A DNA stretch of 64,000 nt from the NCBI GenBank assembly GCA_022508265.1, contig JAFLVP010000003.1:39500-103499 (forward strand). The letters are read 5' to 3'. Position numbers and translations under genes: made by a program. Shown one piece after another: positions 9,289-12,368 of this stretch (position 1 is the first letter of the stretch; every line of letters starts with the position of its first letter). The notes under the pieces were generated by a model, which did no database searches, had not been told where the DNA came from, and saw only the letters and a program-made list of their open reading frames with translations. This DNA comes from Clostridiales bacterium. GTDB taxonomy: Bacteria; Bacillota; Clostridia; Christensenellales; Borkfalkiaceae.

Positions 9289-10743
9289 TTATTGAGTCGG
9301 AGCCGAACTGTCAGATACGACAGGGTTTTCCGAAACTGCGTTATCTTCCGAAACCGCACTTTCGGCAAGGACGGTATCAGCACTTTCTTCCGTTCCGCCG
9401 CCACCGCTTTCCTCGGGAGGCTTTTTCTCTTTACCGTATAATACCTTTAAAAGTATCGGCGTAAGTATCGACGAAACGAGTATTAAAAGTACGGTCATGA
9501 ACATAAATTTTGGGTCAAGCTGCGCCGAGCCAAGCCCCGCGTCTGTTACGACCGCAGTTACTATAAGCGCAACCTCGCCGCGCGCCGCCATACCCGTGCC
9601 GCCTATCGCGCTTTCGCGCAGATTATAGCCGAACGCCTTGAACACCCCGCCGCACCCGACGATTTTGCCTATAATGCCCAAAATTACCGCAAGCACGGCA
9701 AAGAGCAGAATTTTATAGTCAAGACCGCTGAAGGAAATGCTTGAGATGCCGATATTCGCAAAGAATACGGGTGCAAATACGGTGTAAGTGTCTACCTCTA
9801 TCTGACTGTCTATGTACTTGCTCTCGCGGATGTCGGTTGAAAGCACTACGCCCGCAAGGAAGGCGCCCGTTATATCCGCAACGCCGAAAATATGTTCCGC
9901 GAGCCAGCTGTAACCGAAGCACACGGCAAGCGAGAAAATGGGTATGCGGTGATGGGTGGGCCAACGTTTATCCATCCATTTAAAGCATTTTGAAACCACC
10001 CAGCCCGCCGCAACGGCAAAGATGAAGAAGCACACAATCATTATAATGGTTCCGTAGGGAGTGGCTTTAAACGCCTCGAATGGGTTATCGCTTTCAACCG
10101 CGCCCGACTTTGCCATACCCGTAATTACGGACAACAGCACTATGCCTATGACGTCGTCTATAATTGCCGCAGAGACGATCGTGGTGCCCAGCTTGGTATT
10201 GATTTTCCCGAGCTCCTTCAAAACCGAAACGGTTATTGCAACGCTTGTGGCAGTGAGAATTACGCCTACGAACAGACTTCTGAAAATATCGTCGCGCGAG
10301 GCAAGCCCGAAACCAAGCTCGCCGAAGGGCAAAGAGATTAAAAATCCGAACAAAAGGGGCACAAAAACGCCGGAAAGCGCCACCAAAAGAGCGGTAAGTC
10401 CCGTATTTTTGAGTTCCTTTAGGTTTGTTTCAAGTCCCGTTGAAAACATCAGGAGAAGTACGCCTATCTTGGAAAATATACTCAACCCGTTGCCTCCCGT
10501 CGGCAGAACGAAAAGCGCGCTGTACTTACCCGCTTCCTGCGCATCTTCAAAGCCGATGAGCGAGACGTGCGCAAATTCGCCGAAGACGGCAGGACCTATG
10601 AGTATTCCCGCAATTATAAAACCGAGAACCTGCGGCAGACCGAAATGTCTGAACACGAGCCCCAAAAATTTAGTCGAAAATAAAATTATGGCAAGCACGG
10701 CAACAAAGCCGAGAGCCGAATTCCCCTCAAACGGAAGCGTCAT
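9289..10743 (-). CDS. Cation:proton antiporter (CPA2, Kef/NapA type), polytopic membrane protein
   Basis: 484 aa, about 12 TM helices, N-terminal GLPQVLGFIIAGILIGP motif typical of the Na_H exchanger family. Low-complexity acidic/Ser tail. Confidence 0.85.
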   Translation of the reverse strand: MTLPFEGNSALGFVAVLAIILFSTKFLGLVFRHFGLPQVLGFIIAGILIGPAVFGEFAHVSLIGFEDAQEAGKYSALFVLPTGGNGLSIFSKIGVLLLMFSTGLETNLKELKNTGLTALLVALSGVFVPLLFGFLISLPFGELGFGLASRDDIFRSLFVGVILTATSVAITVSVLKELGKINTKLGTTIVSAAIIDDVIGIVLLSVITGMAKSGAVESDNPFEAFKATPYGTIIMIVCFFIFAVAAGWVVSKCFKWMDKRWPTHHRIPIFSLAVCFGYSWLAEHIFGVADITGAFLAGVVLSTDIRESKYIDSQIEVDTYTVFAPVFFANIGISSISFSGLDYKILLFAVLAVILGIIGKIVGCGGVFKAFGYNLRESAIGGTGMAARGEVALIVTAVVTDAGLGSAQLDPKFMFMTVLLILVSSILTPILLKVLYGKEKKPPEESGGGGTEESADTVLAESAVSEDNAVSENPVVSDSSAPTQ

Positions 10744-10945
10744 ACAAATTCATACCTCTCAATAAGCTCACGCCCGCACGAGCACGGCGTCGCTTTTTAC
10801 ACCGCTTTGAATACGGCGTGTAAATACCGTTACAAGCAAGTAATTACACTTGCTATTATAGTATCGATTGTTTCAAATGTTAAGCAATTTGAAAAGGTTG
10901 ATTTTGCCACTTTAAAAAAAATTGAAAAAAATTTTAAAAAACCTC

Positions 10946-10973
10946 TTGACAAGTGTGTTTTTGATGATATAAT
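10946..10973 (+). promoter_or_regulatory. Strong sigma-70 promoter with extended -10
   Basis: TTGACA, 16 nt spacer, TGaTATAAT. Confidence 0.75.
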
Positions 10974-10979
10974 GAAAGT

Positions 10980-11340
10980 ACAAAAAGAAAGAAACTTTCA
11001 AAAAATGTTAGCGCGCAACATTATTGAGGTGTTCCAATGAAGGATACGTAGCCGCGAAAGCGGGTCAAGGTTTAATTTATTTGAGTTGCATTTAGCCGAC
11101 TCTATCTGATAAGGGAAAAATTTAATGTGTTAAGGAGGTAAAGTCCGATGGGAAATCTTTACACCTACACTATTAAAAATAAAGGATGGTAAACTCCGAT
11201 GTACAAGTTTACAGATGAGGTTTAATTCCAAACACGGTATAAGTTTGCGGCAGATTGCCGAGTGGTTTCTGAACCAACGTGCCTTTTAAAGCACCGTGAG
11301 GAGGCGACCTCGAAACCACAACTTAATAATTGATATATTT
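10980..11340 (+). ncRNA. Candidate structured non-coding RNA or leader of unknown class
   Basis: Lies between a consensus promoter (10946) and an intrinsic terminator (11341). No ORF longer than 14 codons with an RBS. Twin hairpins at 11133-11166 and 11189-11212. Nested helix GTGGTTTC(11262)...GAAACCAC(11319). Confidence 0.45.
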
Positions 11341-11369
11341 GCCCCGTGCGGTTGCGCGGGGTTTTGTTT
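11341..11369 (+). terminator. Intrinsic terminator
   Basis: CCCCGTGC-GGTT-GCGCGGGG followed by TTTTGTTT. Confidence 0.8.
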
Positions 11370-11372
11370 ATA

Positions 11373-11586
11373 TTCACAAAAATTTAATTCTATTCTGCGA
11401 ATTGAATTTTTCGTGATTTGGGGAACTAAGTTCCCCTTTACGCGATTTTTAAGTGCAAACGATTATAAAATTACGCAAATTCCCCTTGGGTTCGGGAGGG
11501 AAAGCGCAGTTTTCCCGCCCGCCATGGAGTGTTTTAAAAAGTTCACAAAAATATGCCTCTATTCTGCGCCGACTATTTTTGTGAAC
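11373..11586 (-). repeat. Family-1 mosaic hairpin repeat, variant with a tail hairpin at both ends
   Basis: TTCACAAAAATTTAATTCTATTCTGCGAATTGAATTTTTCGTGA, GGGGAACTAAGTTCCCC, ... and a second TTCACAAAAATA...TATTTTTGTGAA (perfect 12-bp stem) at 11541-11586. Confidence 0.85.
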
Positions 11587-11657
11587 AGGCTTTTTTTATG
11601 TTGCAATTTAGCTTTTTGTTTGATATAATCATATAGAAGTTTATATACGGAGATTAT

Positions 11658-12368
11658 ATGAAACCCAAATACAAAAGAGTTCTTATAAAACTTTCCGGTG
11701 AAGCTCTTGCGGGCGAAAGCGGCCACGGGCTTGACGAAAACGTCGTTTCGGGCGTGGTTGAGCAGATTTACAAGATTCACGAAATGGGCGTTCAGGTAGG
11801 GCTTGTAATAGGCGGCGGAAATTTCTGGCGGGGACGTCAGGGCAAGCAGATGGACAGAACGACTGCCGACCATATGGGAATGCTTGCCACCGTTATGAAC
11901 TCGCTTGCAATGATGGACGCGCTCGAACAGCGCGGCATACCCACCCGCGTTCAGACGGCGCTTATTATGACCTCGGTTGCAGAGCCCTATATTTTAAGAA
12001 AGACCCTCCACCACTTTGAAAAGGGCAGGGTAGTGATTATGGCTTGCGGTACGGGTAACCCCTATTTTTCCACCGACACGGCTGCCGCCCTGCGCGCCTG
12101 CGAAATTCAGGCAGACGTCGTGCTGATGGCGAAAAACGTTGACGGCATCTACGACAGCGACCCCAAGCTGAATCCCAACGCAAAAAAATACTCGCATATT
12201 AAATATTTGGATATTATCAAGAACGGTATAAAGGCAATGGATACAACCGCCGCCACAATGTGTATGGAAAATAATATCCCTGTCCTCGCTTTCGGGCTTG
12301 ACGCAAAGGACTCTATTATCCGCGCCGTATTCGGCGATATATCAGGCACCGTTATAGATAACAACTAA
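11658..12368 (+). CDS. pyrH: UMP kinase
   Basis: 236 aa, KRVLIKLSGEAL...GGGNFWRG motif. In the pyrH-frr-uppS-cdsA order. Confidence 0.97.
   Translation: MKPKYKRVLIKLSGEALAGESGHGLDENVVSGVVEQIYKIHEMGVQVGLVIGGGNFWRGRQGKQMDRTTADHMGMLATVMNSLAMMDALEQRGIPTRVQTALIMTSVAEPYILRKTLHHFEKGRVVIMACGTGNPYFSTDTAAALRACEIQADVVLMAKNVDGIYDSDPKLNPNAKKYSHIKYLDIIKNGIKAMDTTAATMCMENNIPVLAFGLDAKDSIIRAVFGDISGTVIDNN

Follow-up and report, generated by a model that had tools for sequence, protein, structure and literature searches.

The window analysed here is a stretch of 64,000 nucleotides (nt) from contig JAFLVP010000003.1 (positions 39,500 to 103,499, forward strand) of a Clostridiales bacterium placed in the Christensenellales family Borkfalkiaceae (assembly GCA_022508265.1). 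From about 10979 to 11369 of its + strand lies what is, on the evidence of its sequence and that of its relatives, a single stand-alone RNA gene of about 390 nt, called the unit below, in which three short open reading frames (ORFs) are combined with a covarying fold and a self-complementary hairpin loop. As judged from comparative sequence evidence, the frame, length and stop position of these mini-ORFs are under selection, so ribosomes very probably read all three frames. The reading that we favour, and to which we give a little less than an even chance, is drawn from the geometry of the molecule: translation would gate the fold of a structured RNA. The parts of the unit are listed here in order, each on the + strand; SD stands for a Shine-Dalgarno sequence, A1 for an alignment of the 5' domain from 47 sequences, and A2 for an alignment of the 3' half from 50 diverse sequences.

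10946..10973, + strand: promoter, TTGACA, a 16-nt spacer with TG, and TATAAT (sigma-70 score 12/12, extended -10 TG)
10979..11369, + strand: inferred transcript of ~390 nt, its 5' end placed from the -10 box
11004..11022, + strand: hairpin H1, covarying stem AAUGUU/AACAUU and loop A plus GCGCGC (the hexamer at 11011-11016)
11026..11051, + strand: module 1, SD GAGG, a spacer ending in UCCA, and ORF1 (a 4-codon frame in relatives)
11037..11051, + strand: ORF1, AUG AAG GAU ACG UAG (MKDT, then stop)
11052..11063, + strand: GNRA hairpin CCGC-GAAA-GCGG, directly after the ORF1 stop, 100% paired
11100..11119, + strand: conserved unpaired motif CUCUAUCUGAUAAGGGAAAA (consensus YUCUAUAUGAUAAGGGAAA), from the alignments
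11122..11173, + strand: ORF2 hairpin with outer and inner stems, SD2 AGGAGG (11133-11138) buried and AUG2 in the loop, from per-sequence folds
11148..11192, + strand: ORF2, 14 codons (MGNLYTYTIKNKGW, then stop), its AUG behind AGGAGG and its stop UAA inside module 3, from frame conservation
11183..11204, + strand: module 3, SD GGAUGG (consensus GGAAGG) plus GGUAAACUCCRAUGUAC, near-invariant in 63 distinct sequences
11199..11225, + strand: ORF3, 8 codons (MYKFTDEV, then stop), from frame conservation
11217..11311, + strand: 3' domain, from covariation in A2
11217-11222 with 11306-11311, + strand: helix P-a, 6/6 pairs changing on both sides and 94% of cells pairing
11226-11229 with 11300-11303, + strand: helix P-b, in which UUCC after the ORF3 stop pairs with GGAG
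About 11235-11237 with 11294-11296, + strand: helix P-c, covarying
11248-11260, 11264-11275 and 11279-11294, + strand: inner hairpins of the 3' domain, from A2
11312..11340, + strand: single-stranded A/U-rich tail (consensus AAAAYUNAAUA), conserved in the alignment and unpaired in the consensus
11341..11369, + strand: intrinsic terminator, hairpin and U-tract, with compensatory changes in relatives

The ends of the transcript are inferred from its promoter and terminator. The promoter is the top-scoring site of a 4-kb scan and is preceded by an A/T-rich tract (10900-10945); the offset of its TTGACA is identical in 20 of 20 relatives obtained by blastn. An earlier reading made from the letters of this stretch (the sequence-only reading) had described a near-consensus promoter and a clean terminator enclosing no protein-sized ORF, and on all three counts it was right: the site at 10946-10973 scores 12/12 with its upstream TG, the terminator is a 9-bp G+C-rich hairpin (11341-11362) followed by a T-run, and no protein-sized ORF lies on the + strand between the two. 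The whole transcript has a predicted minimum free energy of -103.7 kcal/mol (z = -2.2). The unit is single-copy in its own genome, and in 67 of the 74 units with a recognisable terminator the distance from transcription start site to terminator is 380-445 nt. Among the identities that the sequence-only reading had proposed for the region, that of a novel small RNA (sRNA) agrees with a stand-alone transcript that matches no Rfam family and has a covarying fold, and two of the checks that it had suggested, a scan against Rfam and a search of relatives with a test of covariation, respectively returned no known class and showed the region to be conserved and its fold to covary. Its second proposal, a cis-regulatory leader, finds no support in the comparison across loci: an attenuator should precede a conserved gene that it controls, and the units are followed by at least five kinds of gene, often convergent (a convergent gene at 18 loci), while in the window the following gene, pyrH, has its own promoter.

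Nowhere in the 64-kb window does an Rfam 15 family reach the gathering threshold, and at a cutoff relaxed to E<=10 the weak chance matches in 10700-11700, mostly around the terminator, do not exceed 21 bits. ARAGORN detects no transfer RNA (tRNA) or transfer-messenger RNA (tmRNA) in the window. The size of the unit led us to consider a divergent housekeeping RNA, and GGUAAACUCC does resemble conserved regions of RNase P RNA. We rejected RNase P RNA, tmRNA, signal recognition particle (SRP) RNA and 6S RNA because canonical copies of all four are present elsewhere in the genome: a type A RNase P RNA gene on contig C40 (248 bits), a tmRNA gene on contig C20 (112 bits), a large SRP RNA gene on contig C8 (188 bits) and a 6S RNA gene on contig C12 (54 bits). 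The unit has no match in the phage and plasmid collections searched, and in the literature on minigenes and Clostridia we found nothing on RNAs of this kind.

At least 77 species of a single Christensenellales genus have the unit, each genome in one copy. All genomes concerned are metagenome-assembled genomes (MAGs), and the one that contains the window is 94% complete and lacks ribosomal RNA (rRNA) genes. A blastn search recovers the unit, at 66-88% identity, from 23 of the 24 other genomes of its genus and from no genome in 16 other families of the order; taken as a whole, the unit far exceeds what chance would produce. An exact-pattern scan for GGTAWASTCCRATGTACNA over 185,579 species genomes returned at least 118 loci; among the matches listed, 59 loci carry the unit by our criteria, and a covariance model of the 5' domain (R1) matches 59 of the first 100 pattern loci. 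The record titles of these loci name Clostridia, Candidatus Borkfalkiaceae, Candidatus Coproplasma and 'Christensenella' MAGs, from mouse, rabbit, chicken and human gut. In all, 77 units were collected, and counts out of 77 refer to them. Elsewhere in the family R1 matches none of 57 genomes representing 22 genera, and the strict form of the translation-start module occurs outside the genus at control level across 200 genomes of the order. Within the genus, one genome first scored as negative (G152) does contain the unit, in another (G014) the contig ends at the position where the unit is expected, and a third (G070, 99% complete) has neither the unit nor the antiporter gene that usually adjoins it.

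Some members of the collection depart from the common layout. In a divergent subgroup (loci L015, L016 and L020; L020:1490-2290) the 5' half, the three frames, the P-a pairing, the tail and the terminator are kept, and with a 3' domain enlarged to ~430 nt the RNA reaches ~770 nt. Two tandem matches to the 5'-domain model at L028:4648-4839 suggest a duplicated 5' domain in an RNA of 494 nt, and at L007 and L011 an extra SD with a frame of ~15-16 codons stands between the GNRA hairpin and the equivalent of ORF2, which makes four frames.

Evidence for the three frames comes from how they change among relatives. A 4-codon ORF1 ending at the GNRA hairpin, overlooked in the sequence-only reading, was scored in 62 of the 77 units; three more units outside these 62 have one as well (MKYK, MQNI and MQKD, each followed by a stop), and the MQNI and MQKD units keep four codons despite quite different sequence. 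The ORF1 stop is UAG in 62/62 scored units and UGA in the MQKD variant. ORF2 typically has 13-15 codons, and the distance from its AUG to its UAA (39, 42, 45, 48 or 63 nt) is divisible by 3 in 73 of the 77 units. At least 14 changes of ORF2 length, each a multiple of 3, are counted on a tree made from the remainder of the RNA; with a quickly built FastTree this number may be too high, but even five such changes would be unlikely by chance. The changes fall in the hairpin's apical loop, immediately 3' of the AUG, where RNA structure gives no reason for steps of three. In two consecutive ORF2 codons (K/R and T) the entropy of the third position is 1.95 bits, against 0.4-1.1 at positions 1 and 2, and at 4/4 loci where UAA has become UAU there is an in-frame stop 3-4 codons upstream. 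ORF3 begins 6 nt past the ORF2 stop in the same frame, and is 8 codons long in 67 of 77 units, with a UGA or UAA stop at a fixed position. The codons of the mini-ORFs are ordinary for the genome, the rarest being AGG at 6.7 per 1000 codons.

The two mini-ORFs of the sequence-only reading (11148-11192, 14 codons; 11199-11225, 8 codons), each behind an SD, are borne out by this comparison. Its description of a dual small-peptide transcript with occluded ribosome-binding sites holds in its main point: the frames evolve as translated frames would and SD2 is buried in a conserved hairpin, but the frames are three and only one of the two hairpins concerned is conserved. As a separate observation, the three frames end in three different stop codons: UAG, specific to release factor 1 (RF1), in ORF1, UAA in ORF2, and in ORF3 UGA in most relatives and UAA in the window. 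UAG is the rarest stop of the genome (53 of 665 long ORFs), and the use of three different stops may be a coincidence of overlapping RNA motifs.

The same RNA also carries a conserved fold. In A1 95.7% of cells pair and in A2 88.0%, and in both alignments 0/500 shuffles reach the observed covariation score; these shuffle statistics overstate significance, because related sequences are not independent, and slid-partner controls and counts of independent changes are the safer guides. In the 5' domain, 2 of the 4 pairs of the GNRA stem change on both sides (CCGC/GCGG, CGGC/GCCG, CGCC/GGCG, CCCC/GGGG), and a leader helix CUUAC/GUAAG between SD1 and AUG1 is 94% paired, with compensatory change at one of its pairs; in the window itself a local hairpin is predicted there instead. 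The ORF2 hairpin was judged from per-sequence folds: these have a median of -13 kcal/mol (z = -2.3), at least 3 of 5 SD nucleotides are paired in 32 of 50, and its stems differ by clade (GUUUUAG/CUAAAAC, UUGCAAAA/UUUUGCAA, and the window's own). In the 3' domain, P-a joins codons 6-8 of ORF3 to the segment preceding the tail, so that the end of ORF3, stop codon included, supplies the 5' strand of the closing helices, and P-c, two inner hairpins and the terminator covary as well. Short frames here overlap alternative structures, since the 3' part of ORF2 is the anti-SD arm and codons 6-8 of ORF3 are a strand of P-a.

Several hairpins had already been drawn in the sequence-only reading, which noted neither the self-complementary loop at 11011-11016 nor the helices that truly close the 3' domain. 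Compensatory changes in relatives uphold CCGC-GAAA-GCGG and CGGCA-GAT-TGCCG. Of its 'twin covarying hairpins' the first, with SD2 in the 5' arm and AUG2 in the loop, recurs with different sequences, but the second, GTAAACT/AGTTTAC, is not conserved: it forms in the window, but is 77.7% paired in 50 relatives, with a nearly invariant 5' arm and compensation at one pair in 3 sequences. The 'twins' resemble each other only in the window and a few relatives, so that 'twin covarying hairpins' claims too much. Its nested helix GTGGTTTC...GAAACCAC is specific to the window, the 3' partner in relatives being AAAAYUAAAA. The terminator loop offers a side observation of its own. In most relatives a loop CCGACGUAUUGG is conserved on covarying stems (A2 columns 318-327), its place being taken by a short GGUU loop in the window and a few others; a search for a pairing partner was negative, and a pairing of the terminator loop GACGUAUU with ORF1 codons, proposed by eye, was dropped as lacking covariation.

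A third conserved property is found in the loop of H1. Its hexamer is self-complementary in 77/77 units, in 14 variants: in 72 units by Watson-Crick pairs, in four with the help of G·U (GCUGGC twice, GGUGCC, GCCGGU), and in the remaining unit (L060) as GGUACC behind a G·U-containing stem. The hexamer has changed at least 22 times on the tree, and its three central 'pairs', adjacent columns included, all change on both sides. Adjacent columns make pairing within one hairpin impossible, a hexamer that occurs once per RNA has no intramolecular partner, and a DNA operator is disfavoured because of the G·U cases and the one-sided extra A. By analogy with known kissing loops, the pattern suggests that H1 mediates a loop-loop (kissing) homodimer.

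The motif GGTAAA(G/C)TCCGATG, which the sequence-only reading had taken as shared by a covarying pair of hairpins, is instead a recurrent translation-start module. Within its own genome the module 3 motif occurs in this unit only, and an SD followed by UCCRAUG is found at a handful of places, three of which are the starts of the unit's ORFs. No other module copies or mini-ORF clusters were found in that genome, a match on contig C39 being an ordinary small protein gene, and a search of the same MAG, without rRNA genes, for an antisense partner of the module gave chance-level matches only.

The same module is present in 2-7 tandem copies in promoter-to-terminator RNAs of 450-650 nt in other gut Clostridia MAGs, labelled Eubacterium, Dorea, Lachnospiraceae and Ruminiclostridium, where each module is followed by only 2-3 codons and a stop. 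These RNAs match no Rfam family. They resemble the unit in having a strong promoter and a terminator of their own, no protein-sized ORF, and modules composed of SD, spacer, AUG and a short frame (GAGGUAWASUCCRAUG, stops in frame). The unit of the window is likewise stand-alone and built of repeated modules (UCCRAUG in 3/3 modules); frames of 1-4 codons it has only in ORF1 (4 codons; ORF2 has 13-15 and ORF3 8). It differs from the other RNAs in having just three modules, two of them with longer frames (13-15 and 8 codons), and in the amino-acid-level conservation of ORF2, the large covarying fold and the hairpin with a palindromic loop. Since R1 matches no RNA of another lineage, only the module is demonstrably shared. 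On sequence grounds the unit is the form, confined to one Christensenellales genus, of an uncatalogued set of tandem mini-ORF RNAs of gut Clostridia, with demonstrated homology ending at the module.

These other RNAs are themselves diverse. One type, of ~550-600 nt from promoter to terminator and found in MAGs labelled Eubacterium and related genera (L029:7200-7830, L090:1-560, L066, L073, L093, L084, L040), matches no Rfam family. A 15-codon frame (e.g. MGIEPENLATCKVFQ, MKLQIDTPATYTVSQ) lies near its 5' end, followed by a structured central part and, ahead of the terminator, by 2-4 modules of GAGGUAWASUCCAAUG with 2-3 codons and a stop. Further lineage-specific module RNAs (L057, L062, L080, L094, L117, L140; L033, L083, L105, L127, L133; L072; L137) come from MAGs labelled Dorea/Lachnospiraceae and Ruminiclostridium. 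The number of modules reaches six in L072 and about seven in L137, and some modules in these lineages have no AUG (…GUCCAAAG…, …GACCACC…).

On its 5' side the unit adjoins a divergent gene:

9289..10743, - strand: CPA2-type cation:proton antiporter gene (PF00999), 484 residues, CPA2-like by NCBIfam

A promoter-like site for this gene lies at 10883-10855, and beyond the gene are ylxM and ffh. The antiporter gene adjoins the unit in 69 of 77 cases, the others being mostly cut contigs or the divergent subgroup; at L002 and L061, where an inversion has placed it downstream on the same strand with its own promoter, the adjacency is kept. Antiporter homologues of 41-55% identity are found in 18 of 22 other genera of the family without such an RNA upstream, and inspection of the regions upstream of homologues in four other genera revealed no such unit. 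RNAduplex predictions against 26 cognate antiporter start regions gave a mean z of -0.4 with no common site and scattered positions. The 5' untranslated regions (UTRs) of the antiporter genes are short and not conserved, and the divergent transcripts do not overlap. In the window, the antiporter mRNA appears to have a 5' UTR of ~110 nt (10744-10855, - strand) with several hairpins and no match to a riboswitch family; in relatives ~35 nt separate the -10 box from the start codon. On its 3' side the unit is followed by an intergenic repeat, then pyrH and frr. A direct repeat, TTCACAAAAAT..CTATTCTGCG, at 11373-11399 and 11542-11568, flanks the copy of the intergenic repeat that sits between the terminator of the unit and the pyrH promoter.

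If translation does gate the fold, the parts of the unit could act together as follows. With the GNRA hairpin beginning 15 nt downstream of the A of AUG1, a ribosome on this start codon would have the hairpin at its mRNA channel entrance. SD2 would have to be freed from the ORF2 hairpin before ORF2 could be initiated. A ribosome ending ORF2 would sit on SD3 and the first bases of module 3, 6 nt from AUG3, from where it could be handed over to ORF3, and the geometry of the ORF2 stop and AUG3 suits such coupling. A ribosome ending ORF3 would cover the 5' strands of P-a and P-b and part of that of P-c; since translation of ORF3 must melt P-a and P-b, it and the closed 3' domain would be mutually exclusive. 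Ribosome traffic would set the balance of open and closed forms, and the form adopted would determine the exposure of the 3' strand containing GGAGG and of the A/U tail, while two copies of the RNA would probably pair via the palindromic loop. In its most ambitious version, which we consider speculative and rather unlikely, the unit would be a self-dimerising sensor of ribosome traffic, in which a relay of three frames opens and closes the 3' domain, the output is the conformation or assembly of the RNA and not a protein or a downstream gene, and GGUAAACUCCRAUGUAC serves as a signal for ribosome docking or re-initiation. If true, this would be a new kind of riboregulator.

Several observations weigh against translation gating. 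The strong conservation of GGUAAACUCCRAUGUAC is explained by no helix, the hairpin over the ORF3 start that classical attenuation requires is not conserved, and the linkage to the antiporter gene is left unexplained by the model. The ORF2 peptide is conserved within clades (e.g. YFAKT with synonymous changes), which fits a functional peptide as well. The unit could on that account be a micropeptide operon, with ORF2 (~13 residues), ORF3 (8) and perhaps the ORF1 tetrapeptide as its products, and with RNA structure that only tunes their synthesis. The coding signature and in-frame length changes of ORF2, the conservation at clade level of M..LYFAKTIE..KGR (ORF2) and MYKFTGEI (ORF3), and a strong SD on all three frames speak for such an operon. 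However, RNA elements dictate much of the peptide sequence, KGR and the stop being the SD of module 3, MY lying in the near-invariant module and the C-terminus of ORF3 being a strand of P-a; ORF2 differs widely between clades (e.g. MGTCTGIKKEKGR, MRKLFCKTNEDKVR, MIKLLVSHVNEGKGW); in related RNAs of other Clostridia the same module opens frames of only 2-3 codons; the unit has no linked genes for maturation or export; and the covarying 3' domain of ~200 nt and the palindromic loop would be left without a role. We regard peptide production as the purpose of the unit as unlikely, though a serious contender.

The unit might also be a very abundant RNA whose tiny frames make it a sink for ribosomes, for initiator or elongator tRNA, for release factors or for Pth, on the model of minigenes or CreT RNA toxins. 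The consensus promoter with its A/T-rich upstream tract, three strong SD+AUG modules, a 4-codon ORF1 with a stable hairpin 14-15 nt after its AUG, and sister RNAs with 2-7 modules of 2-3 codons would all suit a sink, and CreT provides a precedent for a mini-ORF RNA that acts by being translated (PMC8501985). Yet the codons are ordinary, with no rare-codon run like that of CreT; a masked SD2 is ill-suited to a sponge; ORF2 and ORF3 exceed minigene length; the large conserved fold goes unexplained; and there is no antitoxin or CRISPR context among the neighbours. A CreT-like reading by rare codons is ruled out by the codon table, and a sink in general strikes us as decidedly unlikely. We consider it more improbable still that the unit is a dedicated regulator of the CPA2 antiporter gene, acting by RNA pairing in trans, by way of a peptide or from a control region common to both. 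The adjacency in 69/77 units despite variable downstream genes, its survival of the inversions at L002 and L061, and the absence of both gene and RNA from G070 invite that view; against it stand back-to-back promoters with non-overlapping transcripts, no consistent pairing site, short unconserved 5' UTRs, and homologues in 18/22 genera that have no such RNA. Several purine-rich GGA/GGAGG motifs in one RNA could recall a CsrB/RsmZ-type sponge for a CsrA-like repressor, but no CsrA (PF02599) was found in the 94%-complete genome, GGA is not the invariant core of the modules and the frames are selected as frames, so that this reading is scarcely credible. What probability remains belongs to readings that we have not considered.

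Gut Clostridia appear to possess many strongly promoted RNAs that centre on tiny translated frames and lie outside Rfam. In the unit, one alignment of at least 77 species displays three selections at once, on a reading frame, on an overlapping multi-helix fold and on a self-complementary loop, and this bears on the use of ribosomes as a structural switch on non-coding RNAs as well as on small bacterial RNAs that work as homodimers, a topic opened by the structures of OLE, ROOL and GOLLD. Even if the function should turn out to be RNA stabilisation or peptide production, the unit would still add a clear-cut new RNA gene family to the annotation of Christensenellales genomes.

Known systems match the unit in part. 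Translation-attenuation leaders, such as the leader peptides of the ermC, cat and tetA(L) type, likewise have a short frame whose translation melts a downstream hairpin, an SD held in a hairpin, and a stop close to the next start, as at the end of ORF2. Unlike them, the unit has no controlled gene, its 'regulated' frame is just 8 codons long, its terminator is followed by unrelated or convergent genes, and a hairpin over the ORF3 start is not conserved. Dual-function sRNAs, among them Bacillus subtilis SR1/SR1P, Staphylococcus aureus RNAIII/hld and Escherichia coli SgrS/SgrT, are also stand-alone structured RNAs with a small frame that is translated, as is very probable for the unit; each of them encodes one peptide, of 26-43 residues, and their base-pairing targets are known, whereas the unit has three frames of 4-15 codons.

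Minigene RNAs, represented by phage lambda bar and by synthetic minigenes of 3-8 codons (PMC2490762), and the tRNA-sequestering CreT toxins (PMC8501985) share with the unit a strong SD and a frame of few codons on a small RNA of non-coding appearance, and their effect requires translation; the unit differs in that it lacks rare codons and any antitoxin or CRISPR partner, and its conserved structure is much larger. For the H1 loop the closest parallel is the dimerisation initiation site (DIS) of HIV-1, whose kissing loops carry GCGCGC or GUGCAC (review PMC7357161). In both a 6-nt self-complementary loop is kept through lineage changes, and GCGCGC and GUGCAC are both among the variants found here; the H1 loop has 7 nt with a single 5' A, against 9 nt in DIS, and its dimer is a prediction from sequence. 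Bacterial RNAs that self-assemble are represented by OLE, ROOL and GOLLD (PMC12286853), from which the unit is set apart by its far smaller size and by the translation that its frames imply.

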